A model generated the notes under the pieces. That model saw only the letters and a list, made by a program, of their open reading frames with translations, was not told where the DNA came from and did no database searches. 64,000 nucleotides of DNA, from NCBI GenBank assembly GCA_022777645.1, contig JALFFX010000055.1, positions 2,705 to 66,704 on the forward strand, read 5' to 3'. The stretch is from Erysipelotrichaceae bacterium (GTDB taxonomy: Bacteria > Bacillota_I > Bacilli_A > RFN20 > CAG-826). The number at the start of each line of letters is the position of its first letter. Within the stretch, counting starts at the first letter, position 1. Of this stretch, positions 8,698 to 63,780 are shown piece by piece. The position numbers and the translations under genes were made by a program.

Positions 8698-8727
8698 AAG
8701 GTGACTTACAAGTCACCTTTTATTTTT
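8698..8727 (+). terminator. rho-independent terminator
   Basis: AAGGTGACTT-ACA-AGTCACCTT hairpin + TTTTATTTTT. Confidence 0.6.
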
Positions 8728-8775
8728 AAAGATGATTGTTTACTTTATTAAAAAACAGTTTATAATTAATAATAG
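8728..8775 (+). promoter_or_regulatory. promoter with TTAAAGAT element and TATAAT
   Basis: TTTAAAGATGATTG...TTTATAAT directly abutting the terminator T-run. Confidence 0.4.
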
Positions 8776-8882
8776 GAGTTATCTAAAGTAAAGAAATTAG
8801 AAATAATTATTGAGTTTGTAGCTTGCTACTTAGGAGATGATTATTGAAGGTTTCAAGAAATAGATAAATCTTAGAGCTCGAG

Positions 8883-8915
8883 AAAATGGTGGTTGCAAAC
8901 GCCATTTTTTATTTG
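8883..8915 (+). terminator. rho-independent terminator
   Basis: AAAATGGTG-loop-CGCCATTTTTT hairpin + T-run. Confidence 0.5.
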
Positions 8916-8920
8916 TTCTT

Positions 8921-8990
8921 TTTAAAGATAACAATGTATCTTTAACATAAAACAATATAAAATATAACATATATACAAGGAGAGATAATT
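8921..8990 (+). promoter_or_regulatory. promoter with palindromic AAAGATA-N6-TATCTTT element
   Basis: TTAAAGATAACAATGTATCTTTAAC then A/T-rich -10 candidates, then GGAGAGATAATT-ATG. Confidence 0.5.
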
Positions 8991-9629
8991 ATGAACGAAT
9001 TAATTTTAGAAACTCAATCAAACGTAGAACGTCAAGAAGAAGCAATTAAAGAAAAACAAAGATTAGTCAAAGAAGTAGCACATCATTATCATATTGATAG
9101 AGATGTAATTTATGCTTATGCTGATTATTTGCATTATTCTGGAAATGCATGGGAAGAAGGAAATCCATTAAAACTTGTTTCAGGAGAACATGTCAAAGAT
9201 AAAATATCACCTACATTTATTAAATTATTAAATATAATTAACGTATTAAGAGATGTTAGTGATTTAGAATTTTTAAGACCATATTTAACAGCATTAAGAG
9301 AACATGGTATTGATATTAAAATTGTTCCTCATGACTCATTAAGTGATAAAACTTTTTTAGAAGATAATATGGCTTTAATTGAAGAACAACAATGTATTAT
9401 TTGTGAAGAATCAGATTTCTTAAAATATAAAGGTGAAGAAGCTGAAGAAAATCAATTTAGTACAAAGAATAAATTTAAAGAACTTACTGAGTCTTACTAT
9501 AAAATTAATAATGGAATTAAATCTGAAAAAGTTATTAATAAATTAACAAAAGATATGTTTAAAAACCATATAAATAACAATGGTATTAGTGAAATTATTG
9601 GCGAACAAAAACATGAAGAGGAAGAATAA
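8991..9629 (+). CDS. hypothetical protein
   Basis: 212-aa ORF with consensus RBS. Confidence 0.7.
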   Translation: MNELILETQSNVERQEEAIKEKQRLVKEVAHHYHIDRDVIYAYADYLHYSGNAWEEGNPLKLVSGEHVKDKISPTFIKLLNIINVLRDVSDLEFLRPYLTALREHGIDIKIVPHDSLSDKTFLEDNMALIEEQQCIICEESDFLKYKGEEAEENQFSTKNKFKELTESYYKINNGIKSEKVINKLTKDMFKNHINNNGISEIIGEQKHEEEE

Positions 9630-11209
9630 TGTCTATTTATTCAAAATTATTTGAGTATCAGAAAAAGATAGTTGATAATAATATAAATAAAAATGCATAT
9701 GGGCTATTTGTAGACATGGGATTAGGAAAAACTCCCATGTCTCTTGCTTTTGCTGAAAAGCATAATTGTACAAAAATATTAATTATTACAACTGCATCAA
9801 AAGCAACTGAAGATAAAACAGTTCATGGGTCATTTTTCTATTGGGCTGCTCAATCATCAATTAAATATAATTTGTATGATAAAAGATATAATTTTGACAA
9901 TAAAGGAGCAAAAAAGTGGAGAGCACAAATTTCACCAGATACTGTTGACATATTTATGACTAATCATGAGTCAACATTTATCAGAGGTGGTGAAAATACT
10001 CGCAACACATCAATGCTAAATAAACAAGTATATGAATTTATAGAAAGTTGTCGAAATCAAAATGTTGCAATTATTGTCGATGAGTCTCACAAAATAAAAA
10101 GTAGAAGTTCAAGTAGAACAAAAGCTTTAATGAAAATTAAGTCACTCTGTGACACAATTAGCAAAAATACATATTTATATTTATTGACTGGGACTCCATT
10201 TACAAAAGGGTTTGAAGATTTATATACTCAATTAAATTTGCTTGGTTGGGATAAATCTTGGACAACATTTAAAGAAACATTTTGTGTTATGGGCAATATT
10301 CCATCATTAACATCTTGGCAACAACCAATTGTTGATTATAAGAATATACCATTATTATTTAATTTAGTGCACAATTATGCTGTGACAATAAAATCTGAAG
10401 AAGTGTTAGATTTACCAGAACAAATCTTTGTATATCATGAACTTCCATTAAATCAACAAATGTTATTGTTCACTTGTAAAAAGTTGCGTGCACAAATTAT
10501 TAATAAAGAATTAAACGCACGTCATATAAATGAATTTGTCAAGCCTGGTGAAAAAGATGGAAAAGTCAATAATATGTTTTATGCAAATATTGCTTATCCA
10601 AACTTAAATTGGCTTGCAGATAGTGTGACAAAGTTTTATACTAGAGCAAGACAATTGAGTATTGGATTCCAAGGTAATAGTGAAAATGCAATGTGGTTTC
10701 AAAAAGCTCGTTTAGCTGAACTTGAAAAACTATTAACTGAACATGAAGACAATTATATTTTGTTCTATAATTACACACCAGAGTTTGTCGAAATATATGA
10801 TATGTGTGAAAGATTAGGTTATAAAATTGATGTTTGTAATGGTTTGATTAAATCAGAAACATTTTATAACGAATATTGCAATTTGTCAGAAGGTCTTAAA
10901 TTAGTTGAAAAGAAACGAATAATGTTAGTCAATTATGGTAGTGGGTCAGAAGGTAAAAATTGGCAAGAATATGATAAATGTATCTTGTTTAGTCTCCCAG
11001 TATTTAAAGATTGGCAACAAGGGTTAAAACGAATTCATAGACCAGGACAAAAAAATAATGTTATTTATCATGTGTTTTATGAAAATAATTGGCTTGATAG
11101 AAGAATGATGGAGTCATTAAAAGAAAAGAAAATATATGATGAAAACATGTTTATGAATGATTTAGCTCGAATTGATAATTTAATTGCTGAAGATTTACAA
11201 GTAAAGTAA
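9629..11209 (+). CDS. SNF2/DEAD-like superfamily-2 helicase
   Basis: motif I FVDMGLGKT, motif II IIVDESHKIK, motif III LLTGTPF; ATG overlaps the upstream stop. Confidence 0.7.
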   Translation: MSIYSKLFEYQKKIVDNNINKNAYGLFVDMGLGKTPMSLAFAEKHNCTKILIITTASKATEDKTVHGSFFYWAAQSSIKYNLYDKRYNFDNKGAKKWRAQISPDTVDIFMTNHESTFIRGGENTRNTSMLNKQVYEFIESCRNQNVAIIVDESHKIKSRSSSRTKALMKIKSLCDTISKNTYLYLLTGTPFTKGFEDLYTQLNLLGWDKSWTTFKETFCVMGNIPSLTSWQQPIVDYKNIPLLFNLVHNYAVTIKSEEVLDLPEQIFVYHELPLNQQMLLFTCKKLRAQIINKELNARHINEFVKPGEKDGKVNNMFYANIAYPNLNWLADSVTKFYTRARQLSIGFQGNSENAMWFQKARLAELEKLLTEHEDNYILFYNYTPEFVEIYDMCERLGYKIDVCNGLIKSETFYNEYCNLSEGLKLVEKKRIMLVNYGSGSEGKNWQEYDKCILFSLPVFKDWQQGLKRIHRPGQKNNVIYHVFYENNWLDRRMMESLKEKKIYDENMFMNDLARIDNLIAEDLQVK

Positions 11210-11228
11210 AATATAATACAATAATATC

Positions 11229-11423
11229 ATGTTAACTTTAACTGAATGTCCTTGCAAATGTTGTGTACCACCAAAACGTACACCAACATGTCATCCGAGC
11301 TGTAAAGTATATTTGACTTGGAAAAAAGAATTAAATGAGTTTAATAAAAAACTCAGAGAAAAACAAAGATATGAAACTATAGCAGATAATTATCATAGAG
11401 TTAAAAAAGGAAGAAATAGATAA
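11229..11423 (+). CDS. small Cys-rich (zinc-ribbon-like) protein
   Basis: CPCKCC...CHPSC cysteine cluster; no clear RBS. Confidence 0.4.
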   Translation: MLTLTECPCKCCVPPKRTPTCHPSCKVYLTWKKELNEFNKKLREKQRYETIADNYHRVKKGRNR

Positions 11424-11440
11424 AACTTCCTTTTTTTATT
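11405..11440 (+). terminator. rho-independent terminator
   Basis: AAAAGGAAG-loop-CTTCCTTTTTTTATTT. Confidence 0.55.
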
Positions 11441-11500
11441 TAAAGATAATTGTGTATCTTTGTAAAAAATGTATTATAATTTTAAACAAGGAGAGATAAC
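11441..11500 (+). promoter_or_regulatory. promoter with AAAGATA-N6-TATCTTT palindrome
   Basis: TTAAAGATAATTGTGTATCTTT ... TATAAT ... AAGGAGAGATAAC-ATG. Confidence 0.55.
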
Positions 11501-13237
11501 ATGCCAGAAAAAGTCGATATTGAAAAGAAATTAGATAACATCGTTAAAGGTGTTGAAACAAATTACTGGAAAAACTTTACATTATCTGAATGGCGTTTAA
11601 AATTAGCATCTGAATGTCAAGTGTATGTTCATGATGAAAATTACCTTGCAAAAAGATTTGACCAAATAAACTATAAGTTTGTGTCACAAAAAACTGCAAT
11701 GGAAATTTTAAAAGATAATTTATATGCTATTTTGCGTTATAAATATCTAACAAAATCAACAGATGAAGTTGAACAAAGAATTAAAGAAATTGTTCGCTCA
11801 TTTTTAGATAATATTAAAACGTCATTAATTAGAATTAGTTTTAATCCTGATACTGAATGTAAATATGTTAGATGGTTGCCAGATGGTTGTGTTGCTTTCA
11901 GAAATGGTGTATTTGATTTTAGAGAAAATAAATGGTTATTTCAATATCAAAAAATTCGTATTGAAGAATTAAATAATAACATTTATATTTATGACCCAAC
12001 TTATATCATTCAATGGTATATTAATATTGAATTTCAACCGTTAGATGGTATATCAGTCAACAATATGTCTCTTGAAGATTTTACATTATTTATGAAAGAA
12101 TATGATAAAGTCTCAAGAAATTATTGTTTTGAATTAATGTATAACATGTCTCATGATTATGATAATAATTTTAGTAAATCACAATTTAAACATTTATGTG
12201 AAATACTTGGTTATTTGTGCAATCAGTCATTTTTACAATACTTTGTATTATTTATTGGTACTGGTCAAAATGGTAAAAACTCATTATTTGATGGATGTTT
12301 TCTATCAAGAGCAATTCCAATGGCTGCTAATAATGACTTAAATGCTATTGAAGAAGATAAGTTTGTGTCAGGCTCACTTGAAAATAAACCTTTTAACATA
12401 TATTTAGAAACTGATGCAGAAACAATTACAAAATCTAAAAATTTAAAAGCAATTACAGGTTCAATGTATCAAACAATTGAGCACAAAGGTGAAGATAAAG
12501 TATCAGGTATTATTAATTGTAAATTTATTTGGGCAGGTAATGACCAAGATAAAATTAAGTTTAGTGATAATACAACAGGATTTCGACGCAGAATTAACAT
12601 CTTTGAAACATATTACACATGGGATGCTAAAAAGAAATTCTTGTTAACTGGTGATTATTATGATACAACATTTTCACAAGATTTACATGAATTGAAAGAT
12701 GATATACTAAACACAATTGTATTTATTTATTTCGCAATGTTTGGTATTAAATCTGCAACAAACAATTTTACAAAACAATTCTCATTTACAAGCAACGATT
12801 GGAAGATGCAATATGTTGACGCAGACTTTGATTTAAAGGAAAAATTAGATAGAATATCACTTGAAAAAATCAATGATTGGATGTCTAAAACTAGAAATCA
12901 TGAAGCTGCAAAAACATTGTTCTATGATAAAACTCGTAAAAGATTATATGACTCAGCATCTATTAGAGAATTAGGAATTAATAATTTTGAAGAGTTTGTT
13001 GAAAAATTTATTAAAAATGATGAAGTGTTCTTACAATACTTTATTGATAATGATTACTGTTATATGTCTATTCGTCATATTCAAGAAATGAGTGGAACTG
13101 GTGATAAATATGAGCCAACTACATTCACTCAAAACTTAAAAAAGATTTATGGAGTAAGACGAACTGAAAATTTATTTAATAACAAACCTTATGTAAAAGT
13201 TAAGTTTGTTAATAATAAATTAAAAATTATGCAGTAA
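11501..13237 (+). CDS. D5/P4-type primase-helicase (SF3 NTPase)
   Basis: Walker A LFIGTGQNGKNSL typical of D5_N / P4 primase C-terminal NTPase; 578 aa. Confidence 0.6.
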   Translation: MPEKVDIEKKLDNIVKGVETNYWKNFTLSEWRLKLASECQVYVHDENYLAKRFDQINYKFVSQKTAMEILKDNLYAILRYKYLTKSTDEVEQRIKEIVRSFLDNIKTSLIRISFNPDTECKYVRWLPDGCVAFRNGVFDFRENKWLFQYQKIRIEELNNNIYIYDPTYIIQWYINIEFQPLDGISVNNMSLEDFTLFMKEYDKVSRNYCFELMYNMSHDYDNNFSKSQFKHLCEILGYLCNQSFLQYFVLFIGTGQNGKNSLFDGCFLSRAIPMAANNDLNAIEEDKFVSGSLENKPFNIYLETDAETITKSKNLKAITGSMYQTIEHKGEDKVSGIINCKFIWAGNDQDKIKFSDNTTGFRRRINIFETYYTWDAKKKFLLTGDYYDTTFSQDLHELKDDILNTIVFIYFAMFGIKSATNNFTKQFSFTSNDWKMQYVDADFDLKEKLDRISLEKINDWMSKTRNHEAAKTLFYDKTRKRLYDSASIRELGINNFEEFVEKFIKNDEVFLQYFIDNDYCYMSIRHIQEMSGTGDKYEPTTFTQNLKKIYGVRRTENLFNNKPYVKVKFVNNKLKIMQ

Positions 13238-13251
13238 GGAAAGGAGAAACT

Positions 13252-13503: not shown

Positions 13504-13505
13504 TT

Positions 13506-14466: not shown

Positions 14467-14654
14467 TGCAAAAAGTAATTATTAAAATTTATATTAAGAA
14501 AAAAGTATCACCATTAGCAACAGTTGAAATTGAAGATGCAAAGAAATTTGATGAACTTTTTGATAATATTGAAAATGCAAAATCTGTTGTTAAGTTCGGT
14601 CAAATTATGTTCTTAAAAACTGAATTTAGATTTGCAACATTGACTTTTAAATAA
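14466..14654 (+). CDS. hypothetical protein
   Basis: 62-aa ORF, ATG overlaps the upstream stop. Confidence 0.45.
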   Translation: MQKVIIKIYIKKKVSPLATVEIEDAKKFDELFDNIENAKSVVKFGQIMFLKTEFRFATLTFK

Positions 14655-14680
14655 GTGCATTGAAAAATGCACTTTTTCTT
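14654..14680 (+). terminator. rho-independent terminator
   Basis: GTGCATTG-AAAA-ATGCAC hairpin + TTTTTCTT running into TTAAAGATAA. Confidence 0.55.
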
Positions 14681-14745
14681 AAAGATAATTATTTATATTT
14701 AAAACAGTATGTTATACAATATAATCAACAAAGGAGTGTAATATT
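14680..14745 (+). promoter_or_regulatory. promoter with TTAAAGATAA element
   Basis: CTTAAAGATAATTATTTATATTT ... TACAAT ... AAAGGAGTG. Confidence 0.45.
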
Positions 14746-14943: not shown

Positions 14944-14964
14944 ATTATTTAGGAGAGATAATTA

Positions 14965-16338: not shown

Positions 16339-17466
16339 ATGGAAAATATTGTCTGGTCACATAGTAAACTAAACACATTATTAAATAATCCTGCAGAATA
16401 TTATTTATATTATGTGCAAGGAATTCAACCAAAAATTGAAAAAACAGCACTCTCAATTGGAAGTGCTATTCACTGGGGTTTGGAAAATCAAACATCAGAT
16501 TTACAACCTTATTATAATGAAAAAGGAAGTTTTGCTCAATGGAATAATTATACTGATGAGCAATGCTTAGCTGAATGTATTGTTGAAGCATTTTTAAAGA
16601 GACAGAAAGAAGTTATTGATGATATTCTTAAAGATGATGAAACATTAGAAATTTTAGATGTAATGTCTATTGAAAGAGAATTAAGACTCACTGGACATTT
16701 AGACTCTAAATTATATCCTGATGGACATGACTTCTTGGGCATTATAGACCTTTTAATTCTTACTAATAAAGGATTTATATTAATTGACTATAAAACATCA
16801 TCTCGTGATGTTGAGTGGAAATCTTACAAAAGTCAATTATTCAAATATGATTTCTTATTACAATATAATTTTCCAGAAATTCCATTATATAAAGTTGGAA
16901 TTATTAACTTAAAGAAAACTGGTATTAAGCGTAAAAAAGGTGAAAGTGATATTGCTTTCAGACAAAGAATTAGAGAACAATACATTGTTGATGACACATT
17001 AATCAATTGGCATTGTTATTCAAAAGCAGAGTTCTCTGTTGAAGAATTAAATCATTTTAAAGAAGATTTATCTGGAATGTTAGATGTTGGTAGAGGAATT
17101 GTTGAAAATCAATTATTTTATACAAATCTTAGCAACATTCAAGGTATGTATGGTGAGTCACAATATGCTGATATTTTCTATCATAGAGATGACGCTTGGT
17201 ATAGTTATATTATTAAAGATACTATTTATGACTTAGATGAACAAGCAATGTTATCAAAACGCAATTGTGAAGACATTGACATGCTAGTTCTTACAAATAA
17301 AAATGTTTTAAATAAATATAATTTATTCAAATCAGCTGCTGATAAGATTTTCAGTATCAACAAATCAACAACAAAACAACAATTGTTTGATGAATTGAAA
17401 GAAAATTATATTTGTTCTGATAAATTATTAGAACAATACTTTATCACAATGGAACACGAAAACTAA
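16339..17466 (+). CDS. PD-(D/E)XK family nuclease (RecB/Cas4-like exonuclease)
   Basis: GIIDLLILTNKGFILIDYKTS matches the motif II/III D...(D/E)xK core; lies beside an AAA_24 ATPase as in phage recombination modules. Confidence 0.55.
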   Translation: MENIVWSHSKLNTLLNNPAEYYLYYVQGIQPKIEKTALSIGSAIHWGLENQTSDLQPYYNEKGSFAQWNNYTDEQCLAECIVEAFLKRQKEVIDDILKDDETLEILDVMSIERELRLTGHLDSKLYPDGHDFLGIIDLLILTNKGFILIDYKTSSRDVEWKSYKSQLFKYDFLLQYNFPEIPLYKVGIINLKKTGIKRKKGESDIAFRQRIREQYIVDDTLINWHCYSKAEFSVEELNHFKEDLSGMLDVGRGIVENQLFYTNLSNIQGMYGESQYADIFYHRDDAWYSYIIKDTIYDLDEQAMLSKRNCEDIDMLVLTNKNVLNKYNLFKSAADKIFSINKSTTKQQLFDELKENYICSDKLLEQYFITMEHEN

Positions 17467-17569
17467 AGAAAAACGTTTACATTTAAGTATGCATGATATA
17501 TAATGTATAATGTAAATGTAATTGGTCTTAATTGTGATAAATTACATTTATGAAAGGAGAGATAGTATA

Positions 17570-17914: not shown

Positions 17915-17928
17915 AGGAGAAAGTAATT

Positions 17929-18966
17929 ATGAGAAAAACTCTCAAAATGGTTCTTTATGGGGAACCTGGCGAAGGTAAATCAACATTTGTTAGTAAATCA
18001 AAAAACCCATTTTATATTTCTACTGATGGTAATTTTGAATGGTTAGATTTACCTGAACAAAACCATAAACAAATATTCAGTTTTACTGAATTTAAAAACA
18101 TTGTTAAAGACATGATTGACAATCCTGCAAAATATGCTCAATTTGATGTTATTGCAGTTGACTTGATTGAAGATGTCTTTAAATGGTGTGAATTCGAATA
18201 TTGCAAACGTAATAGAGTTGAACATGTTGGTGATATTGGCTATGGCAAAGGCTATGACATCAGCAGAAATGAATTCTATATTGAGATTTGTAAATTATTA
18301 GGATTAGACAAACATGTCGTCTTAATTGCACACGGTTTTACAAAGACTGAAACAAACAATCGTGGCGTTAACGTTACAAAATACTTACCATCTGATAGAA
18401 TTCCTTCTAAAGTTTGGGATATGATTGAAGGTCGTGTAAGATATTTCTTAAGAGCATTTAGTCGTGATGAAGAAACAAGTGAAGGTAAGTTTGTTAAACG
18501 TAGATACTTATCATTGATTCCAAAACAAGGTGAATATGGTATTTCTAGAGGTTTAAATGAAGCTGAAGTTCCTGAAGATATTGATTTAGACTGGAATACA
18601 TTTATCACAGTTATTGGTTTAGAAGATGATGCAACACCAGTTGTTGAAACACAAAAATCAAGAAAACCAAAAATTATTAAAACAGAACAAGTTAAAGAAG
18701 AACCAAAACTTAAAGCAGAACCAAAAGTTGAATCTGCACCTATTGTTGAAGAAAAACAAAAAGTTGTAGAAGAACCAAAAGTTGAATCTGCACCTGTTGT
18801 TGAATCTGCACCTGTTGTTAAAGAAGAACCAAAAGTTGTAGAAGAACCAAAAGTTGAAGAAAAACAAGCACCTATTGTTAAAGAAGAACCAAAAGTTGAA
18901 CAAGTTAAAGAAGAGTCTATGGCTGAAAGAATTGCTCGTATTAAAGCTCAATTTGGTAAAAAATAA
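17929..18966 (+). CDS. AAA_24 / Sak4-like ATPase with C-terminal PEK-rich tandem repeats
   Basis: Walker A MVLYGEPGEGKSTF; C-terminus made of repeated EEPKVE / ESAPVV units. Confidence 0.55.
   Translation: MRKTLKMVLYGEPGEGKSTFVSKSKNPFYISTDGNFEWLDLPEQNHKQIFSFTEFKNIVKDMIDNPAKYAQFDVIAVDLIEDVFKWCEFEYCKRNRVEHVGDIGYGKGYDISRNEFYIEICKLLGLDKHVVLIAHGFTKTETNNRGVNVTKYLPSDRIPSKVWDMIEGRVRYFLRAFSRDEETSEGKFVKRRYLSLIPKQGEYGISRGLNEAEVPEDIDLDWNTFITVIGLEDDATPVVETQKSRKPKIIKTEQVKEEPKLKAEPKVESAPIVEEKQKVVEEPKVESAPVVESAPVVKEEPKVVEEPKVEEKQAPIVKEEPKVEQVKEESMAERIARIKAQFGKK
18690..18900 (+). repeat. in-frame tandem 18-36 nt repeats (GAAGAACCAAAAGTTGAA / GAATCTGCACCTGTTGTT)
   Basis: directly visible as reiterated nucleotide units encoding EEPKVE/ESAPVV. 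Confidence 0.7.
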
Positions 18967-18978
18967 AGGAGATAATAT

Positions 18979-20490: not shown

Positions 20491-20973
20491 ATGTGCGACG
20501 AAGATTTAGATTTAATTAATGATGAGTCTCATTTAGAAGACTTAGAAAATGAAAGATATAATCGACCATCTTGGCAACAAACATTTATTGATGTCGCCAA
20601 AGTTGTTTCAAAACGCAGCAAAGACCCTCATACAAAAGTAGGTTGTGTTCTTGTTAAAAATAATTGTATTGTTGCAACAGGTTATAATGGTGACCCAAGA
20701 GAATTCAGATATGAGTTTAATTGGAATACTGAAGAAAAATATAATTATGTTGTTCATGCAGAAATGAACACAATCGCAAATGCTGTATATAATGGAGCAG
20801 GAAATAATATTAAAGATGGTGAAGTCTATTTGACATTATCACCTTGTAGTAAATGCATTTTATTGCTCATTCAATTCGGCATTAAAAAAGTTTATTATCT
20901 TGAAGAATATAAAGATTTTGAACTTACAAAGAAAATTGCAGATAATGCAAACATTCGATTAATAAAAATATAG
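20491..20973 (+). CDS. dCMP deaminase
   Basis: zinc-binding signature HAE (VVHAEMNTI) and PCxxC (SPCSKC). Confidence 0.8.
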   Translation: MCDEDLDLINDESHLEDLENERYNRPSWQQTFIDVAKVVSKRSKDPHTKVGCVLVKNNCIVATGYNGDPREFRYEFNWNTEEKYNYVVHAEMNTIANAVYNGAGNNIKDGEVYLTLSPCSKCILLLIQFGIKKVYYLEEYKDFELTKKIADNANIRLIKI

Positions 20974-20984
20974 GAGAGATAATT

Positions 20985-21719
20985 ATGAGAATATTTGAAG
21001 GAAACACTATTGCTGAAGTATATGGTGATGCTGTAAAAAGTCTTTTAACTGCTGATGTAGTTGGAAGTACTAGAGAAATTAACAACTGTGTTCTTATAGT
21101 TCACAATCCAACATTAGAAAACATTTCATTTCCATATCGTAAACCTTTATCATTAAAATATTCAAATGCAGAATTAAGATGGTATTATTCAGCTGATAAT
21201 TCTTGTCACACAATTGGTCAACATGCTAAAATGTGGTTATCATTATCAGATGATGGTGAAACAAACAATTCTGCATATGGTTATATTTTATTTAAGAAAT
21301 ATGGATTTAATCAATTAGAACAAATTATTGAATTATTGAAGAAAGATACAACTACTCGTAGAGCTGTATTGAATATATCAGACCCATCAATTAATCGTAT
21401 TACTACAAAAGATATGCAATGCACAATTGCTCTTGATTTCTTAATTCGTAATGGTGAATTAGAAGAAACAGTTGTGATGCGTTCAAATGATGTGTTTTTC
21501 GGTTTTCCATATGATTATATATTCTTCGTTAGTTTAGGACAATATATTGCTAAAAGATTAGGACTTAAATTAGGTTTATATACACATCATGCAATATCAT
21601 TTCATATGTATTTAAGAGATGTTGATAATTTTAATTACCAAAATTCAACAACATTTACAATTGACGCAGAATCTATTATTAAGGAGTGTTATGAATATGA
21701 AAAGAATAACACCAATTAA
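20985..21719 (+). CDS. thymidylate synthase (ThyA)-family pyrimidine-nucleotide C5-transferase, divergent (candidate dCMP hydroxymethylase/methylase)
   Basis: aligns by eye to ThyA core: MQC (PCH, catalytic Cys retained), MRSNDVFFGFPYDY (QRSCDVFLGLPFNI, Asp at the N177-equivalent position), ISFHMY (GDTHLY). Confidence 0.6.
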   Translation: MRIFEGNTIAEVYGDAVKSLLTADVVGSTREINNCVLIVHNPTLENISFPYRKPLSLKYSNAELRWYYSADNSCHTIGQHAKMWLSLSDDGETNNSAYGYILFKKYGFNQLEQIIELLKKDTTTRRAVLNISDPSINRITTKDMQCTIALDFLIRNGELEETVVMRSNDVFFGFPYDYIFFVSLGQYIAKRLGLKLGLYTHHAISFHMYLRDVDNFNYQNSTTFTIDAESIIKECYEYEKNNTN

Positions 21720-21963
21720 AGTTAGATATTTAGCAAATGAAATTCATGATTTATTCAATATTTGTTTAGATAATGCATTAGCATTATTAAATGATGATGA
21801 ATTAGGAAGATGTTTTGATGATAATAATGAAATTGATATGAATTATATTGAAGTAAAAGTTATCAATCCAAATGCTACATTAAAGATATTATATGATGCA
21901 GCAACATTATTAGATAAAATGTCAAGTATTTATGATAAGGAGAGAACAGTAAATGAAAATTAA
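21691..21963 (+). CDS. hypothetical protein
   Basis: start reassigned to ATG 21691/21697 after AAGGAG; overlaps the end of the ThyA-like gene. Confidence 0.4.
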   Translation: MNMKRITPIKVRYLANEIHDLFNICLDNALALLNDDELGRCFDDNNEIDMNYIEVKVINPNATLKILYDAATLLDKMSSIYDKERTVNEN

Positions 21964-22366
21964 ATTATTTGATAAAAATGTAAAAATACCTACTAAGTCA
22001 CATTCTACTGACTGCGGATTAGATTTATATTTACCAGAAGGTTTTATCATTAAACCATTAGAAACTATATGTCTTGGACTTGGTATTGGTTTCTCAGTTC
22101 CAGAAGGAGCTGCAGGAATATTTGTTCCAAGAAGTAGTATTGCTAAAAAAGGTTTAGTAATTACACCTGCAATTACTGACTGTGGCTATAGTGGAGAAAC
22201 ACATTTGATTTTGACAAATTGTTCAAATAATACTTATACATTTAACAAAGATGATAGAGTTTGCTCATTTGTTTGTTTCAATATCATAAATCCACTTATC
22301 GAAATAGTTGATGAATTACCATCAAGTGAACGTGGTGACAAAGGTTTAGGTTCAACTGGTAATTAA
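21953..22366 (+). CDS. dut: dUTPase (trimeric dUTP diphosphatase family)
   Basis: all five dUTPase motifs are present: DCGLDL, PRSS, ITDCGYSGE, DRVCSF, ERGDKGLGSTG. Confidence 0.8.
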   Translation: MKIKLFDKNVKIPTKSHSTDCGLDLYLPEGFIIKPLETICLGLGIGFSVPEGAAGIFVPRSSIAKKGLVITPAITDCGYSGETHLILTNCSNNTYTFNKDDRVCSFVCFNIINPLIEIVDELPSSERGDKGLGSTGN

Positions 22367-26743: not shown

Positions 26744-26879
26744 TTATCTCTCCAATATTTTATTATATCAAAAATTAACTATAAATTAAATATATCATCA
26801 GTTATTTCTGATATTAAAATAAGGCATTTTTAGATGCAGAACTATTCAGCTAGTTATATCTAACATTATTACAGACTGT

Positions 26880-26960
26880 TAATATTTCATTAGAAGATTT
26901 TAATAAATTAAAAGTGTATAAATGTAATTATACACAATTATTAAGTTTAAATATCATTGA
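26880..26960. promoter_or_regulatory. inverted repeat GTGTATAAATGTAATTATACAC upstream of terL
   Basis: 8-bp arms, located in the 290-bp leader of terL. Confidence 0.3.
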
Positions 26961-27029
26961 GCAGATAGTGTAGTTTATGATAAACATTTTTGAAGTCGTC
27001 AGGTGTGACATATACCTTTTCTGGCTTAA

Positions 27030-34055: not shown

Positions 34056-34129
34056 ATTAATTATATAACAAAATTTTTATAAGAATATAAAAAAAGAATT
34101 AGTTTTGAGCTAATTCTTTCTTTTTATAA

Positions 34130-36437: not shown

Positions 36438-36492
36438 AATTGTTTTCTTCCTTTCATATTAATTATAATCTATATTTTTTAAATATATAAAT

Positions 36493-40103: not shown

Positions 40104-40185
40104 AATTTACAAAACCATTTCCTTTCATAAATTATTATAATCTATATTTTTTATAAATATACAAATAATTTTCATTTTTTATACA

Positions 40186-44536: not shown

Positions 44537-44615
44537 AAACTTTCTCCTTTTTAATAAAAATTATTTTTTTTTTAACAAAAATATTATAAATCATATTTTT
44601 TGCAAATTGACAAAA

Positions 44616-48210: not shown

Positions 48211-48266
48211 AAATTTATCTCCTTACTATTTTAATTCTATATCATTTATTAATGATTTGAAATAAA

Positions 48267-53113: not shown

Positions 53114-53187
53114 TTTATTTATCTCTCCTTCTAATATATTTTATTATAAAATCAAATGATTTTGAATAAAACATTAAAAATCATATG

Positions 53188-53232
53188 TTAAAAAAAATAA
53201 CATACAATGAAACGATTGATATGTTATTTTAA
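53188..53232 (-). terminator. rho-independent terminator (minus strand)
   Basis: on the minus strand: TAACATA-loop-TATGTTA followed by T8. Confidence 0.45.
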
Positions 53233-53278
53233 AAAGCTTGTTTTAGTTCTAATTTAATATCTATCGTATTGAAATATA

Positions 53279-54532: not shown

Positions 54533-54563
54533 AATGAACACCTCTTACGTTATATTCTTTTAA

Positions 54564-56906: not shown

Positions 56907-56982
56907 GTTTTAATTATATAATCATTAAATCAAAATGTAAATTAAATAAAGAATGCTGACGATGTTTCACAATAATCAACTG

Positions 56983-57426
56983 TTAAAATACTCTTAAACT
57001 ATCAAAAGCTCTATCTTCTATGCAACCATAACACAACAATAACGATAATGCTTTTAACTGTGCATCAGTTAAACGTGTCACATTGTGTATATTGTTATAC
57101 CACACATAAATAATGCCTAACTCACTCATCATCTTATCATAACAATCTGCATCATGTCTAAAGTGCTCAACACAATATTCTCGTGTCCAACCTTTTAACT
57201 TACAATATTCTAATAAGCATTTTTCTGAGTGTGAAGGAATAGCATACTCAATTGTGCCATCAGGCCAGATTATCACTTCGCAATAATTGACAAACACTTG
57301 ACTATGCACCTTATAACTAAAAGGCATATAAAGATATTTGTTGCTCAAATGATGTGGTGACTTGCCATTGTTGCGATATTCAGCAATTTCAAGCAATTGT
57401 TGATGTTCAATACTATTGTCATGCAT
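56983..57426 (-). CDS. hypothetical Cys-rich protein
   Basis: 147-aa ORF. Confidence 0.5.
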   Translation of the reverse strand: MHDNSIEHQQLLEIAEYRNNGKSPHHLSNKYLYMPFSYKVHSQVFVNYCEVIIWPDGTIEYAIPSHSEKCLLEYCKLKGWTREYCVEHFRHDADCYDKMMSELGIIYVWYNNIHNVTRLTDAQLKALSLLLCYGCIEDRAFDSLRVF

Positions 57427-57616
57427 AATACTTAACTATCTCACCATCATTTGTTAATACTATAACACGAAATGCTTGTGTAAACCTTTGCACTATTTTT
57501 GCAACTTTTAGTGTATCACTTGTAGTTAATGCTTTCTTATACTTAGTTGTAATTGACATATATTTATCGACCCAATATTGACGTTTATCTCGACGATTAA
57601 TAACAACTATTTGCAT
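57419..57616 (-). CDS. hypothetical protein
   Basis: 65-aa ORF. Confidence 0.4.
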   Translation of the reverse strand: MQIVVINRRDKRQYWVDKYMSITTKYKKALTTSDTLKVAKIVQRFTQAFRVIVLTNDGEIVKYYA

Positions 57617-57618
57617 AA

Positions 57619-58504: not shown

Positions 58505-58555
58505 ATTATTATTGTATCACATTCATGGTTAAAGATACGTATTTATCTTTAATGA

Positions 58556-58987: not shown

Positions 58988-59166
58988 TAATCATCAATCT
59001 CCTTCACATTATTATTGTATAATAAAAGAGTGCATAAGCACTCAGTTATCTTTAATAATAAATAATGGTCTTTTTTTTTTTATATTTCCCCAATATATTA
59101 TACTACATTTTGACTTAAATCTAACTAGTTATCTTTAAAATCATATGTAGTTAATTATTATTTAAA
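58988..59166 (-). promoter_or_regulatory. ~85-bp promoter cassette (palindromic AAAGATA-N6-TATCTTT, extended -10 TGGTATAAT-like, T11 tract)
   Basis: same unit recurs at 60016-60262 and 61768-61860. Confidence 0.5.
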
Positions 59167-59682
59167 TTAATGAATTTTGAAAACTTGATTTGCATCTGCT
59201 TTCATTATATCTCTAGTATGTTTATCAAGATTTGTTATTTCATCAATATTTTTATCTGGAAAATAAGAACATTCTTCACCTAATGCTGCTTGCACATATA
59301 CTGAAAATGGAAATGTCAGCATATGTTTAGAAACATTATTATCAATTAAATTTTTGGTAATCCATCTATCAGCCAAATATCCTTCATCAAAACTTTCAGG
59401 CCAATCATGATTAATATGATATACTTCAACATTTGAAAAATCTGATGCAATTTTTTCAACAGGTATTTGTAAATATAATGCTAAACATTTTCTAATATCT
59501 TCATTTGAATGAAAACAATCATAAAAATATTCATTTTCTAAAAAACCTTTTTTAATTCCTTCATAATTTTTATTACTGTCAAATTCATCAATATTATTGA
59601 TTGCTGGTTCCCATTTTAAGTTAATAGTATCTTTAAATTTTCTAATACTATCAATGATTTTCTTTTTTTCATTTTTATTCAT
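59167..59682 (-). CDS. hypothetical protein
   Basis: start set at MNKNEKK (AAATGGAG RBS). Confidence 0.5.
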   Translation of the reverse strand: MNKNEKKKIIDSIRKFKDTINLKWEPAINNIDEFDSNKNYEGIKKGFLENEYFYDCFHSNEDIRKCLALYLQIPVEKIASDFSNVEVYHINHDWPESFDEGYLADRWITKNLIDNNVSKHMLTFPFSVYVQAALGEECSYFPDKNIDEITNLDKHTRDIMKADANQVFKIH

Positions 59683-59728
59683 ATTAATTACTCCATTTCT
59701 ATATATATAATATAACATCAATATTGTT

Positions 59729-59956
59729 TTATAAAATTATTTTTTTTTCATTTTCAATTTCTTCAAACTCACTTATAAGAAATTTTCTAAAATCTTCATC
59801 TAAAAGTATATCTTCATCAGAACATCTTCTAATATTTTTAAATTCACAATATATATCAACGATGTCTTGATGTTTTTCTTTTAACATGAGTTGAATATAT
59901 TGTAGCATTTGTAATTCTTTATGTGAGAGTGTTTGTGTAGTAAATTTCAATTTCAT
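59729..59956 (-). CDS. hypothetical protein
   Basis: 75-aa ORF. Confidence 0.45.
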   Translation of the reverse strand: MKLKFTTQTLSHKELQMLQYIQLMLKEKHQDIVDIYCEFKNIRRCSDEDILLDEDFRKFLISEFEEIENEKKIIL

Positions 59957-60284
59957 TTTACATCATTCCTTATTTGCATTTATATTATACTATAAAACAA
60001 TACAAATCTAACTAGTTATCTTTAAGTAAAATAATACTCTTTTTTTTTTTTTATATATTTCCCCAGTATATTATACCACATTTTTACTTAAAGATACATA
60101 ATTATCTTTAAGTAAAATTCTTTTTTTTTTTAATATTCTCCAAATATATTATACCATATTTTTACTTAAATGTAATCAGTTATCTTTAATGATAAATAAT
60201 GGATTTTTTTTTATATATTTCCCTAGTATATTATACTATATTTTTACTTAAAAGTAATTAGTTATCTTTAATGATAAATAATCC
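59957..60284 (-). repeat. tandem array (~3.3 copies) of the ~80-87-bp promoter cassette
   Basis: unit boundaries at TTATCTTTA occurrences 60015, 60101, 60180, 60262; each unit contains a T9-T13 run and TATATT(T)CCCCAGTATATTATAC. Confidence 0.65.
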
Positions 60285-60545
60285 ATTCCAGTCTTCGTCT
60301 GCGTATGATTCAAATGTATCATGTTCAACAAGAAACTCTGCTGTTGAGATGATGACTTGAGCATACATGTTATCATGTGAATATTCAGCTGCTGGAGTTT
60401 CGCTGCCATCGGCTTCCAATGTTGCAGCATCGTAGCAATAATCTAAGAAGTCATCATCATAGTGTCCGTGTAAGTATGAATATTCAATGATGATATTATA
60501 ATAAGTTTTGAGAGTGCATGTCTCAAGATTAAGTTCATATCTCAT
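60258..60545 (-). CDS. hypothetical acidic protein
   Basis: 95-aa ORF. Confidence 0.5.
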   Translation of the reverse strand: MRYELNLETCTLKTYYNIIIEYSYLHGHYDDDFLDYCYDAATLEADGSETPAAEYSHDNMYAQVIISTAEFLVEHDTFESYADEDWNGLFIIKDN

Positions 60546-60547
60546 AA

Positions 60548-60799
60548 TCAGTCCTCATCATCGACGCCGAAGTATCTGTTTTCAAGTTCGTTAACTAAGA
60601 GTTCAGTATAAGCTTTTTCATCTTCTTCTCCGAAACAATTATCTAAGCCAACTCCCAACACAGCTAATAAAACTTCCTTTAATTGATAATTGCTCATATC
60701 TGTGTAATTGTCAGCAATGAAGTCATATAACACGCCTGCGCCTTCTGATGTCGCTTTCACTAATTCCTTTTCTAAGTTTTTCATCAATATTTCCTCCAT
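60548..60799 (-). CDS. hypothetical acidic protein
   Basis: 83-aa ORF; conserved leader TATAAT-ATATATGTAAAGGATGGAGG upstream. Confidence 0.5.
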   Translation of the reverse strand: MEEILMKNLEKELVKATSEGAGVLYDFIADNYTDMSNYQLKEVLLAVLGVGLDNCFGEEDEKAYTELLVNELENRYFGVDDED

Positions 60800-60850
60800 C
60801 CTTTACATATATATTATACTATAAGTTGAAGTAAAGATATATACTTATCT
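60800..60850 (-). promoter_or_regulatory. promoter + conserved 5' leader (AAAGATA...TATCTTT, TATAGTATAAT, AAGGATGGAGG RBS)
   Basis: leader identical in four genes. Confidence 0.5.
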
Positions 60851-61180
60851 TTACTTAACAACTTCAATTAACTCAAGTCCTAAACGTTTATCCCAGTAGT
60901 GAGCTGCATTGACAACAGTTGATGGCACTTTTCTATGTGAGTATAATCCTGCGTCATGTGTTTCTTTTTCTGAGTAATGTTCAATGAATGATTGTTCTAA
61001 ATCTTTGTATGATTCATCAGATTCAAAATCTTCCATACATTGCTCCCACGTTTCTCCATCAGGCCAGATGTAGAGCCAATCTGAGTAATAAGCTTCTTCA
61101 TCATTCATGTATATCATGATTTGTCCAAGCAACCAAGCCTTTTCACCATTATCTAATTTTAACCATTCTTCGTGTGTCAT
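60851..61180 (-). CDS. hypothetical protein
   Basis: 109-aa ORF with conserved leader. Confidence 0.5.
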   Translation of the reverse strand: MTHEEWLKLDNGEKAWLLGQIMIYMNDEEAYYSDWLYIWPDGETWEQCMEDFESDESYKDLEQSFIEHYSEKETHDAGLYSHRKVPSTVVNAAHYWDKRLGLELIEVVK

Positions 61181-61247
61181 TGAGATGTTCCTCCATCCTT
61201 TACATATATATTATATAATATTTATAAGTAAAGATATATACTTATCT
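61181..61247 (-). promoter_or_regulatory. promoter + conserved leader
   Basis: TAAAGATAAGTATATATCTTTACTTATAAATATTATATAATATATATGTAAAGGATGGAGG on the minus strand. Confidence 0.5.
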
Positions 61248-61712
61248 TTACTTAATACCATACCATAAAATATTACCACGATCTTTCAAACAATCATAAG
61301 CTTTATAAGCATCTTGTGCAGTAATTCCATCATGCATATAAGCACTTTCAACTTTGCACTTTCTTGACCATTCTAAGCCTTCTGTATAATCGTCTTTAAT
61401 TTCTTGTTTGATGATTTGTTTCACCTTATTTGCAAACCATTCTTTGATTTGTTGTTCATCCATATTACAGAACTTATTGCAGCGTGGTCTGTTAAAGTCC
61501 ACATCACCCCAAGCTTTACTAATATATATGACAACATCATCACCTTCGAGGTCACAGCATTCAAATAACCAATAACCTCTCATTGCAAATGAGTTTTCCC
61601 ACATGCCATCACTAAGTTGACCTTCAACACTTTGAATTATTGATAACATTTTTGTTCCCTTTAAGCCGGTGTGTATTTTTCTACAATTTGCTTTAATTTT
61701 TTCTGACCACAT
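61248..61712 (-). CDS. hypothetical protein
   Basis: 154-aa ORF. Confidence 0.5.
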   Translation of the reverse strand: MWSEKIKANCRKIHTGLKGTKMLSIIQSVEGQLSDGMWENSFAMRGYWLFECCDLEGDDVVIYISKAWGDVDFNRPRCNKFCNMDEQQIKEWFANKVKQIIKQEIKDDYTEGLEWSRKCKVESAYMHDGITAQDAYKAYDCLKDRGNILWYGIK

Positions 61713-61887
61713 TTTATGTATCCTCCATCCTTTACATATATATTATAATATTTTTTATCTTAAAGATATATGATTATCTTTAAGTAAAATAATGGTCTTT
61801 TTTTTTTTTTTTTTTTTAACAATTCCCCATTATATTATACCATATTTTTTCTCAAAGATACATAATTATCTTTAGGAGAAGAGAATA
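61713..61887 (-). promoter_or_regulatory. double promoter cassette with ~20-nt poly-T (poly-A on the transcribed strand)
   Basis: two AAAGATA-N6-TATCTTT elements each followed by TATAAT; T-run 61798-61817. Confidence 0.5.
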
Positions 61888-62256
61888 TCACCCGAGTTGG
61901 ATGATATTCTCAAGATGTTTAGCGAAGAAATCTGTGATGTTATAATTTTTATTATTTGCCTCATATTCACCTTTCTCAATTTCTTCACCTTGAGCATTGA
62001 AGTAAGTGACGTGTGTGATTTGTTTATTATTTTTAGTTATACGAGCAACAACATAATCATCACCTTGCTTATTAGTTTTTACTTCGATGTTTGTAAACCT
62101 TACAACACCTTTGGAAACTTTACGTCCATTATTAGTAATAGTCTCCCACATCATTGAAATATATGTGCCTTTTTTATATGTGGCCATAATACTTTCGAAC
62201 TCTTTTCTTGTCATAACATTTGTTCCTCCATCCTTGACATATATATTGTATAACAT
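61888..62256 (-). CDS. hypothetical protein
   Basis: 122-aa ORF with conserved leader. Confidence 0.5.
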   Translation of the reverse strand: MLYNIYVKDGGTNVMTRKEFESIMATYKKGTYISMMWETITNNGRKVSKGVVRFTNIEVKTNKQGDDYVVARITKNNKQITHVTYFNAQGEEIEKGEYEANNKNYNITDFFAKHLENIIQLG

Positions 62257-62506
62257 ATATGCTTAAAAGTAATTAGTTATCTTTAAATACAAATATTCAC
62301 TTATTTAAAGATAACAATGTACATATTAAGAATTTAGAGTTATTATATTTATGAACAAAAATTGTGATGTGTATTGACATTACGCTCCTTTGTGACTGGT
62401 AGTTATATCTCGCCAATATAACTACTTTTTTTATTGCTTAAAGATAACTAATTACATTTGAAAAATAACGTTATATAATAATAATGTCAATGATGGAGGA
62501 ACATAA
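62257..62506. promoter_or_regulatory. divergent promoter region at the -/+ strand switch, with several copies of the TAAAGATAAC element in both orientations
   Basis: 62270 AGTTATCTTTA (-), 62306 TTTAAAGATAACAATGTACAT (+), 62445 TTAAAGATAACTAATTACATTT (+), TATATAAT + GATGGAGGAACAT RBS. Confidence 0.5.
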
Positions 62507-62821
62507 ATGACAAACTTAAATGAAAATACAAAAGCAGCTCAATCAATGATTAGCCGCTACATCAATACTACTAAAGGTAGTAGTATTTATAATGCATATT
62601 GCAAACCTTCAGCAGCAAAAGTTGAGGCGTGCAATAAGATTAAAAAGGAAATGAATGAGGTAGGGGGGTATGGCTTCCGTATCACAAAAGCAGGGTCTAG
62701 CTTCTTTAGCTGTGCTTATCTTGTCAATCATATTGCTGATGGTGAAACTAAAGCAACTAAATATTTAATTTATCATACAGTGAATAATGTATATCGTATA
62801 AAATACGATGCTCAAAGATAA
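62507..62821 (+). CDS. hypothetical protein
   Basis: 104-aa ORF, GATGGAGGAACATAA-ATG; contains a G6 tract. Confidence 0.55.
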   Translation: MTNLNENTKAAQSMISRYINTTKGSSIYNAYCKPSAAKVEACNKIKKEMNEVGGYGFRITKAGSSFFSCAYLVNHIADGETKATKYLIYHTVNNVYRIKYDAQR

Positions 62822-62881
62822 ACAAGTCGTTAAACTTAAAAATATGATACAATATATTTGTCAATGAGGAGGAATGATTGG

Positions 62882-63691
62882 ATGGAACAAATTGACAACT
62901 TAATTGAATTAAAAAACAAACGTGAAATTGCATTTGAAGCATTTGAAGCAAATGAAAAAATTGTCATTGATGAACTGACAAAAATATTAAATGAAAAATG
63001 CTGTCCTGAAGGAGTCGAATTAGTAGTCGACTTAAAAATGCAAGTATGTCGCAGATATGATGAACAATATGGTCAATATTATTTCAATGGTGATATAGGC
63101 TTCAAGACAGATGATGAGGAGCGTCTTGCAAAAGGATGGAAAACAGACTTTGGCTCAGACTTTGATATTCGCATTTATCAAAATGGGGGTATTGAGATTA
63201 ACAAAGGAACGTGCGGCTCATATCGTCGTCAAGATAAGTTTCAAGTCGCTAGAGATTTATGCTTAGCTAAGATTTGGGAAAATGAAGAAGCATTGGTCAA
63301 TTGTATGAATTATCATTTCAAATATGACCTTTATAAGACACTTAAAGATATTGATAACAAAATTATACAAATTGAACAACAACAAAGATGTGATAATGCT
63401 TTAAAGGCATTAGGGGGGGCGGTTTATCTCTACACAGAAAATGTCTACAATAAATATGAATATGTCGGCGATAAATATGAAATTGCTAAAGCACACAGTC
63501 CAAGTGATATTTTCAAAATTGAAAAAATTACAGATAAAAATGTGCTTGGATACTATGTTGATTTTCCGTGGAAAAAGAAACGTCTTGACCGTAATATAAT
63601 TATGACCAAAATTATGAATAATTATTTAAAGACATCTGTTGAATTACCAACTGCATTCATAGTATCAAATGACGAGGAGGCGGGTAAATAA
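62882..63691 (+). CDS. hypothetical protein
   Basis: start set at MEQIDN (GAGGAGG RBS); G7 tract inside, C10 tract just after the stop. Confidence 0.55.
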   Translation: MEQIDNLIELKNKREIAFEAFEANEKIVIDELTKILNEKCCPEGVELVVDLKMQVCRRYDEQYGQYYFNGDIGFKTDDEERLAKGWKTDFGSDFDIRIYQNGGIEINKGTCGSYRRQDKFQVARDLCLAKIWENEEALVNCMNYHFKYDLYKTLKDIDNKIIQIEQQQRCDNALKALGGAVYLYTENVYNKYEYVGDKYEIAKAHSPSDIFKIEKITDKNVLGYYVDFPWKKKRLDRNIIMTKIMNNYLKTSVELPTAFIVSNDEEAGK

Positions 63692-63702
63692 CTACCCCCC
63701 CC

Positions 63703-63780
63703 CTCCTTTCTTAAAGATAACTAATTACATTTAAACATATTTGTGATACAATATAATTGTAAAATGGAAGGAAGATAATT
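63703..63780 (+). promoter_or_regulatory. promoter with TTAAAGATAACTAATTACATTT element
   Basis: near-identical to 62445-62466; followed by TACAAT and GGAAGGAAGATAATT-ATG. Confidence 0.5.

Follow-up and report, generated by a model that had tools for sequence, protein, structure and literature searches.

What do the short inverted repeats do that recur between the genes of a 64,000-nucleotide stretch of contig JALFFX010000055.1, deposited as Erysipelotrichaceae bacterium (hereafter the window), and what reads them? A first-pass annotation of the letters had described the repeat, AAAGATA-N6-TATCTTT, as a genome-wide palindromic promoter element. We show here that it is one form of a 24-bp element (hereafter the box) that stands in fixed register with a -10 hexamer in the genome of a phage of ~69 kb, tentatively associated with Erysipelotrichaceae. 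The box-bearing units are well supported as promoters of non-late genes by their position, orientation, -10 hexamers, conservation and terminators, and in our reading they form the early/middle promoter class of the phage, i.e., that of host takeover and replication. Judged from sequence, this class probably carries a protein-binding dyad, whichever the sign of the regulatory effect.

A 24-bp dyad in fixed register with the -10 hexamer

We aligned 43 sites, 23 from the window, one from L254 (a contig of the same sample that joins the window's end to its start) and 19 from four related metagenomic phages. In the shared element, represented by the 24-bp probe TTAAAGATAATTATGTATCTTTAA, a variable 4-bp spacer joins a left arm TTAAAGATAA to a right arm (T)TAYMTTTAA, and 12 further variable bases separate the latter from a -10 hexamer (TATAAT, TACAAT or similar) that is of the sigma-A type and co-oriented with the gene at all sites. 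The hexamer begins 34-35 nt after the first T of TAAAGATA in 43/43 cases, a fixed spacing where 15-35 nt had initially been allowed; it is often TG-extended and followed after ~7 nt by a conserved G, the predicted start, and downstream of it lies either a ribosome-binding site with a start codon or another promoter unit. With this G as +1, the element covers about -48 to -25 with its dyad centre near -36.5, the left arm lying at -48 to -38 (centre ~-42.5) and the right arm overlapping the -35 hexamer. The original placement of the element in the -35 region therefore holds for its variable half, whereas the invariant half lies upstream of -35.

Every column of the left arm is conserved in 41-43 of the 43 sites, including the G and the T inside AAAGATAA (43/43 and 42/43, respectively), while the spacer takes 20 different forms, the commonest being CTAA, which argues for selection rather than recent copying. 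In about two-thirds of the sites the right arm is -35-like and reads aTTACA or TTTACA with a 17-bp spacer to the -10 (e.g., ATTACA-17-TATAAT at 62451-62479 and 60176-60148, TTTACA-17-TATAAT at 17476-17504), in agreement with a simple consensus scan and with a TTGACA-like hexamer 16-18 bp from the -10. In 12 sites, 8 of them in the window, it is instead TATCTTT, the exact inverse of the left arm, at the expense of the -35 match: the eight perfect palindromes of the window read gTATCT at this position and do not fit the sigma-A hexamer. Four of these (8923, 60853, 61250 and 61782) lack both a -35 match and a TG extension, yet lie upstream of genes whose ribosome-binding sites are strong. Overall, the two arms match at 7 or more of 10 positions in 28 of the 43 sites as compared to 1.8% of random 10-mer controls. 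That the dyad symmetry survives complete spacer turnover supports a dimeric DNA-binding protein and, as three phages maintain it around unrelated spacers and forgo the -35 match for it, we strongly infer that such a protein binds the box.

Alternatively, the box could be read by RNA polymerase only: the left arm would serve the alpha C-terminal domain as a proximal UP-element subsite, the right arm would be the -35 hexamer with its flanks, and the palindrome a by-product. UP elements occupy -59 to -38 and tolerate many A/T sequences; the left arm is A/T-rich and placed at the proximal subsite, the T-runs of terminators fall on the distal one, a usable -35-like right arm is present in two-thirds of the sites, and one sister lineage (L130) has a plain A-tract as its left arm. 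In addition, the same CTA occurs in the ATTTTTCTATTGACA-N17-TAgAAT promoters of distant phages, so that the core would be a strong sigma-A promoter of the ordinary type. No dyad is recognised by alpha or by sigma, however, and 12 sites in the window, L134 and L135 carry the exact inverse TATCTTT among unrelated spacers, each paying with its -35 match. Furthermore, the invariant G and T are unlike the degenerate A/T preference of UP elements, a specific G-containing 10-mer being kept here and mirrored downstream, and another sister lineage has the G-rich box GTAGGTAT at the same place. We consider recognition by polymerase only improbable; were it correct, the box would amount to an ordinary though unusually rigid promoter consensus.

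Distribution in the genome and in related phages

On the plus strand, between 1.9 and 24.6 kb, the window (26-36% G+C) encodes a SNF2-type helicase, a primase, a PD-(D/E)XK nuclease, an AAA_24 ATPase, a dCMP deaminase, a thymidylate-synthase homologue, a dUTPase and a DNA polymerase. The minus strand holds the structural, late block at 24.6-58 kb (large terminase subunit, portal, head protease and baseplate wedge) and a block of small genes without known function at 58.5-62.26 kb, and a rightward operon begins at 62.3 kb.

In this layout the exact palindrome AAAGATA-N6-TATCTTT occurs 8 times as compared to 0.01 expected matches, which bears out the perfect copies described in the first pass; the first-pass coordinates overall were correct within 1-6 nt (e.g., 11442 for 11444 and 58531 for 58533). 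TTAAAGATAAY occurs 15 times (0.54 expected) and a relaxed motif (TAAAGATA or a one-mismatch variant) has 23 promoter-type copies, so that the initial estimate of at least 20 sites stands for the relaxed motif but not for the stricter one. For this set every TAAAGATA was listed with its flanks and a weight matrix was then built; all sites scoring 21 or more lie between genes or in the final codons of one, and all 23 copies are co-oriented with the downstream gene. One further copy, in the 4.9-kb segment of the genome outside the window (L254), brings the number of early/middle promoters to 24. Equal frequency inside coding sequence had been named as the outcome that would speak against the element; instead, TTAAAGATAA is 43-fold denser in intergenic DNA, with 18 copies in 5.4 kb vs 4 in 58.6 kb, and at least three of the four coding copies (4266, 6731 and 60270) lie in the last codons of a gene with the -10 still at the right offset.

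Contrary to its description as genome-wide, the element has no strong copy between 24.6 and 58.4 kb, i.e., throughout the 34-kb late block. Intergenic regions of this block feature A-rich DNA followed by a TGaT(n)TATAAT-like extended -10, with neither dyad nor upstream box (Table 1), and AAAAAATATAGATTATAAT occurs twice, upstream of 36437 and of 40103. As late promoters lack the dyad, the box marks a temporal or functional class rather than all promoters.

The same element at the same offset, often in orthologous places, is found in four related metagenomic phages (L005/L006, L129, L134 and L135), in which either the helicase is 56-72% identical or an early protein is 53-64% identical. The association with promoters first proposed from the window is thereby upheld: the box is oriented with the genes, its distance to a TATAAT-type -10 is fixed, and all four phages conserve it. 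Perfect copies in L134 have arms extended inwards, AAAGATAAC-TG-GTTATCTTT, and the promoter heading the long minus-strand operon is palindromic in the window and L135 alike. The promoters of the helicase and the primase, both perfectly palindromic in the window, have the right arms TATATTT and TACATTT/AACATTT, respectively, in L005/L129; because orthologous promoters switch between both forms, the two right arms look functionally interchangeable. Beyond these phages, motif scans of IMG/VR returned only single chance matches, and the motif is absent from an IMG/VR relative of which structural genes only are available (L004). Related-locus searches from single proteins (the helicase and a 277-aa early protein) found nothing, an exact look-up of a 75-aa early protein returned no record, and literature searches retrieved no description of the motif, the matches being primers and unrelated sequences.

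Model for the box and the sign of its effect

The strict 34-35 nt spacing in 43/43 sites argues that the element acts together with RNA polymerase and not as a free-standing operator. We propose a model where each promoter is formed by an ordinary host sigma-A type -10 (TAtAAT) and the 24-bp dyad, and where a putative lineage-specific, probably phage-encoded dimeric factor would recognise the half-site TTAAAGATAA and act positively by aiding the host RNA polymerase at box promoters. The invariant upstream half-site (~-42.5) would occupy the place from which activators contact sigma region 4 or the C-terminal domain of alpha, while the downstream half-site over the -35 would either be read by sigma as a -35-like TTACAT or be a second TATCTTTAA half-site that is read by the second subunit and replaces -35 recognition. 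Late promoters, which have no box, would depend on their TGnTATAAT-type extended -10, and the plus-strand terminators directly upstream of many boxes would insulate operons, their U-runs doubling as A/T-rich upstream DNA. We infer protein binding, phage encoding and a positive effect; the last, whereby the bound factor assists or substitutes the -35, we favour tentatively and rate somewhat short of probable. In its favour are the unvarying register with the -10, an upstream half that is conserved more strictly and has its centre near -42.5, the usual activator position, the interchange of -35 hexamer and second half-site at orthologous promoters, and the -35-less state of the G-rich box in a sister lineage.

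Several observations weigh against this model. A dyad over the -35 is textbook geometry for a repressor rather than an activator, and its centre near -36.5 misses the classical -41.5 activator position by half a helical turn. If all non-late promoters needed a phage factor, there could be no transcription at injection, and the factor would have to be virion-borne, or else the -35-proficient copies would have to fire unaided. In addition, Pfam and PHROGs gave no DNA-binding, helix-turn-helix (HTH), sigma, MotA or AsiA match in ~75 proteins, comprising all early and replication genes, the 4.9-kb segment outside the window and a few proteins of the structural block; the HTH or sigma-like binder that the first-pass annotation had proposed to look for was thus not detectable, and of its dimeric DNA-binding protein the dyad stands, far beyond chance, while the binder itself stays putative. 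Finally, the candidate reader, a 108-aa protein (61888-62214, minus strand), has no PDB sequence match and an uninformative AlphaFold model (predicted local distance difference test score of 52). This protein is encoded by the first gene of the leftward early operon and belongs to a family of only ten members; it is present in L134 and L135, the box relatives with covered early regions, and absent from L133. When proteins were profiled by presence or absence against motif type, about ten lineage-restricted open reading frames (ORFs) were left, none of which is singled out; besides the 108-aa protein, small candidates are encoded at 60548-60799 and 57419-57616 (minus strand) and at 8991-9629 and 6788-6979 (plus strand).

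The same geometry suggests a shut-off operator instead, where a dimeric phage repressor made early would occlude the -35 of early/middle promoters once late transcription starts, in a Cro-like manner or as in early repression by phi29 p4/p6, the promoters themselves being intrinsically strong and of host type. Such a mechanism accounts for the overlap of the palindrome with the -35 and for the lack of the motif in late promoters; near-consensus -10 hexamers and A/T-rich upstream DNA would let the host polymerase fire unaided at time zero, and tandem strong early promoters are typical of host-takeover regions. A repressor does not, however, require the -10 spacing that is invariant in 43 sites and six sequences, nor a left arm conserved this strictly, and an exact TATCTTT right arm is missing from 31 of the 43 sites, which would retain only one good half-site, leaving most promoters poorly repressed. 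Moreover, no recognisable repressor gene adjoins the divergent control region. We regard shut-off as possible, if on the unlikely side.

Comparison with known systems

Among known systems, T4 middle promoters combine a MotA box with a sigma-70 -10 through sigma appropriation by MotA/AsiA, and they resemble the present class in that a box specific to the phage stands in for or overrides the -35 at a strict distance from a retained host -10 and defines a temporal class to which late promoters do not belong. The MotA box, however, is 9 bp long, non-palindromic, centred at -30 and read by a monomer, whereas the element here is a 24-bp dyad centred near -36.5 with its invariant half upstream of -35, and Pfam detects no family of any kind in the early/middle proteins, so no recognisable MotA or AsiA domain. 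Lambda cII promoters carry TTGC-N6-TTGC direct repeats that straddle the -35 and bind a cII tetramer; shared features are an activator site over a poor -35, two half-sites, a short spacer and a strict position, whereas the repeats here are inverted, the half-sites span 10 bp and many copies have a good -35. The lambdoid Cro/cI and P22 c2 operators form cooperative clusters at varying positions relative to the -35 and -10 and adjoin a recognisable HTH gene. Like the box, they are dyad-symmetric sites of 17-24 bp over early promoters in many copies per genome; unlike them, the box occurs once per promoter in constant register, and neither an HTH nor a ribbon-helix-helix repressor gene was recognisable by Pfam or PHROGs among the ~75 proteins. 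The SPO1 host-takeover module and the tandem T7 A1-A3 early promoters share a compact early region with many small genes, a strong promoter and terminator per operon, and tandem promoters before the first gene; they are of plain host type with no conserved dyad, and gene-less 82-bp promoter repeats with A-runs, as described below, are not known from either phage.

Four further candidates were rejected on sequence or position: a class II CRP/FNR-type site, which needs a dyad at -41.5; Fur/PerR boxes, for which the GATAAT-N-ATTATC spacing differs; a DnaA box, matched at only 6 of 9 positions; and an IHF site, because of core mismatch. Host use of the box was addressed with a perfect-palindrome scan of 185,579 species genomes (one per species), which gave single scattered matches among the 118 matches listed, 75 of them inside long ORFs and most of them intra-ORF; among these 118 no host regulon was seen, and none had a -10 at the right offset or promoter architecture.

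A temporal phage promoter class with a built-in regulator site is of a known kind, and unusually rigid here. The points of interest that this example adds are a reader invisible to sequence methods and a box that is swapped among related phages.

Box exchange in sister lineages

Sister lineages share gene order with the window phage and have different upstream boxes, which other than TTAAAGATAA are gAAAGTAGGTAT or CTATTGACATTTAA. In L007, L132 and L133 no -35 hexamer is present, and the box gAAAGTAGGTAT (GYGGGTAT in L132) begins 30 nt before the -10 (e.g., L133 2281-2304, 3606 and 4417; L132 4565, 9675 and 14578), and at L133 2281 it forms a perfect 10-4-10 palindrome, GTAGGTATGA-ACTT-TCATACCTAC. 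These three phages have a G+C of 28%, 50% and 33%, respectively, which argues for a reader that is phage-borne rather than host-specific. L131 has (TAAATGTCA)-CTAT-TGACATTTAA with a canonical -35 and, in 3 of 7 sites, a partial dyad on the same centre, and the A-tract of L130 stands in the left arm's place within TTTAAAAAAA-CTAT-TTACATTTAA. Distant phages that share a 154-aa early protein have the CTA of their ATTTTTCTATTGACA-N17-TAgAAT promoters just upstream of the -35 and no special boxes; the family of this protein is widespread in unrelated phages, none of which has the motif. An ordinary strong sigma-A promoter (CTA-TTGACA) is the likely ancestor, onto which the lineages would have grafted different upstream elements.

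More generally, small phage transcription factors of a new family, unrecognisable by sequence, might take over -35 recognition for the host polymerase in phages of gut Firmicutes, with their DNA specificity swapped between sister lineages (TTAAAGATAA dyad, GTAGGTAT box or plain TTGACA) independently of host G+C, and with half-site and host -35 interchangeable at the orthologous promoters of the window; we hold this broader proposal to be rather doubtful. The box nonetheless points to a regulator that sequence searches miss, and three interchangeable upstream boxes in phages of shared gene order constitute a natural experiment for finding the reader protein. The boxes may also yield orthogonal promoter/factor pairs for low-G+C Firmicutes.

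Promoters, terminators and gene-less units

Together, the 24 early/middle promoters, the late class and the terminators provide an operon and timing map (Table 1) for an uncultured ~69-kb gut phage without a close cultured relative. Six plus-strand terminators, each a G+C-containing hairpin with a U-run, mark operon ends directly upstream of the element, six copies of which begin in such a U-run, and the four terminator-promoter junctions first noted on this strand (the first four terminators of Table 1) were all confirmed. The hairpins at ~11403-11437, 62398-62432 and 63674-63705 have z-scores of -2.5 to -3.8, and the same terminator-then-promoter arrangement is seen in L005 and L132. Minus-strand copies are mostly preceded by the end of a gene or by a further promoter unit and not by a terminator.

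Because the box stands just after terminators, read-through RNA would include it, and its inverted repeats could form hairpins; the repeat might then act at the level of the nucleic acid, as an RNA hairpin for processing or termination, a DNA cruciform, or a replication or packaging signal, and lie near promoters by chance. The arms are invariant and do not co-vary, however, most copies are imperfect on one side only, the stem would have only 7-9 A/U-rich pairs, and neither the strict -10 offset nor the gene orientation would be explained. We find such a function barely credible.

Table 1. Positions of promoter units, intrinsic terminators and exact palindromes (window coordinates)
Feature	Position	Strand	Remarks
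Promoter unit, degenerate right arm	1798..1839	+	TTAAAGATAAA..TACAAT, offset 35; first of plus-strand replication module
Promoter unit	4266..4307	+	Within last codons of gene 3848-4306; upstream of gene 4385
Promoter unit	6731..6772	+	End of gene 5271-6734; upstream of gene 6788
Intrinsic terminator	8697..8720	+	U-run runs into next element
Variant promoter unit	8726..8766	+	TTAAAGATGA, -35 TTTACT; drives ORF-less unit of ~140 nt
Intrinsic terminator	8881..8910	+	
Promoter unit, perfect palindrome	8922..8963	+	Helicase operon
Terminator hairpin and U-run	~11403..11437	+	
Promoter unit, perfect palindrome	11440..11480	+	Primase gene
Intrinsic terminator	14653..14674	+	
Promoter unit	14679..14720	+	Right arm TATATTTAA
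Variant promoter unit	17463..17504	+	CTAAAGAAAA and TTTACA-17-TATAAT
Promoter unit, perfect palindrome	58511..58552	-	Heads long operon running into structural genes; orthologous palindrome at L135 14979
Promoter unit	59014..59055	-	Right arm replaced by hairpin GAGTGC-TTAT-GCACTC and T-run
Gene-less promoter unit	59097..59138	-	Followed by GGGGAAATATA and A-run
Four tandem promoter units, 82-bp period	59984..60271	-	T of TAAAGATA at 60270, 60188, 60110 and 60024
Promoter unit, perfect palindrome	60813..60854	-	Conserved leader ATATATATGTAAAGGATGGAGG
Promoter unit, perfect palindrome	61210..61251	-	Leader ATATATATGTAAAGGATGGAGG
Promoter unit, perfect palindrome	61742..61783	-	Leader ATATATATGTAAAGGATGGAGG
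Gene-less promoter unit, perfect palindrome	61834..61875	-	Followed by GGGGAATTG and A20 run
Promoter unit, -35-like right arm	62245..62286	-	First leftward promoter of divergent control region
Promoter unit	62305..62346	+	First rightward promoter; ORF-less unit of ~80 nt ending in terminator
Terminator hairpin and U-run	~62398..62432	+	
Promoter unit	62438..62479	+	ATTACA-17-TATAAT
Terminator-like hairpin and short U-run	~63674..63705	+	
Promoter unit	63711..63752	+	-35-like right arm, TG-extended TACAAT
Exact palindrome AAAGATA-N6-TATCTTT	8924, 11442, 58531, 60090, 60833, 61230, 61762, 61854		
Late-promoter-like motif	26744-27029, 34056-34129, 36438-36492, 40104-40185	-	
Late-promoter-like motif	44537-44615, 48211-48266, 53114-53278, 56907-56982	-	

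Five promoter units on the minus strand (59097-59138, 60070-60271 and 61834-61875) are gene-less, each reading TATAAT-ATACTGGGGAAATATATA followed by a run of 9-20 A. The 82-bp tandem array (60013-60283) is made up of three of these units and a fourth that precedes a gene (59729-59956); its unit 60110 is a perfect palindrome, and only the last unit stands before a gene. No gene-less units were seen in the relatives L134 and L135. Those of the window could serve as early promoters in a stack, act as decoys for the factor or give rise to short RNAs. At 59028-59043 (minus strand) the hairpin GAGTGC-TTAT-GCACTC with its T-run lies between the left arm and the -10 of promoter 59054, so that the terminator of the upstream gene-less promoter is nested in the next promoter.

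Two plus-strand promoter-to-terminator units, 62353-62437 and 8772-8915, contain no ORF of more than 8 codons and fold markedly more stably than shuffled controls (z of -3.4 and -4.3, respectively), and the 3' part of the latter (CTTAGAGCTCGA..GGTTGCAAAC) is conserved in L005. Neither unit has an Rfam match, and both are candidate small RNAs. Four early genes on the minus strand share a near-identical leader ATATATATGTAAAGGATGGAGGAA from the -10 to the start codon (60800-60830, 61181-61209, 61713-61741 and 62215-62244), and promoter, 5' untranslated region and ribosome-binding site appear to have spread as one cassette.

Genome context and other features

L254 bridges the window's end to its start, and the genome is therefore circular or circularly permuted, with a size of ~68.9 kb. 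At the DNA level the window has no megablast match in 50,697 phage records, and its portal protein shares only ~27% identity with the portal of any cultured phage. Metagenomes are rich in homologues of the helicase, and since a deposited protein from a metagenome-assembled genome of 'Erysipelotrichaceae bacterium' is at least 90% identical to the window helicase, Erysipelotrichaceae are the tentative host.

The dCMP deaminase, the thymidylate-synthase homologue (with an E-value of only 3e-21) and the dUTPase are clustered at 20491-22366 and could serve either the ordinary provision of dTTP or a pathway for modified pyrimidines. Within the AAA_24 ATPase gene (17929-18966), an in-frame 18/54/72-bp tandem repeat at 18679-18900 encodes a charged, repetitive tract rich in K/E/P. 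Homopolymers of 7-9 G or C are present at 413-421, 664-670, 62662-62668, 63413-63420 and 63697-63705 in this genome of ~29% G+C, some of them inside genes, and they may be slippage-prone tracts or assembly artefacts.

A large non-coding region at 1100-1860, flanked on both sides by divergent genes, is a candidate replication origin or packaging region. It features TAGTAAGTT/ACTTACTAG repeats, a 35-bp direct repeat (1716-1784) and four copies of TATGTATA (1267-1299), as well as two isolated box copies without a -10 (1322-, 1563-). Just upstream of window position 1, a 465-bp non-coding stretch of L254 (6570-7035) with a G+C above its surroundings separates the rightward early operon from the first gene of the window; Rfam gave no family in the window and no meaningful match in this stretch. 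Finally, L254 encodes at 4977-6378 three small proteins with a common C-terminal peptide KGELELL, two of which also share an N-terminal MKYIRTQ.. motif, and the three form a small paralogous family.

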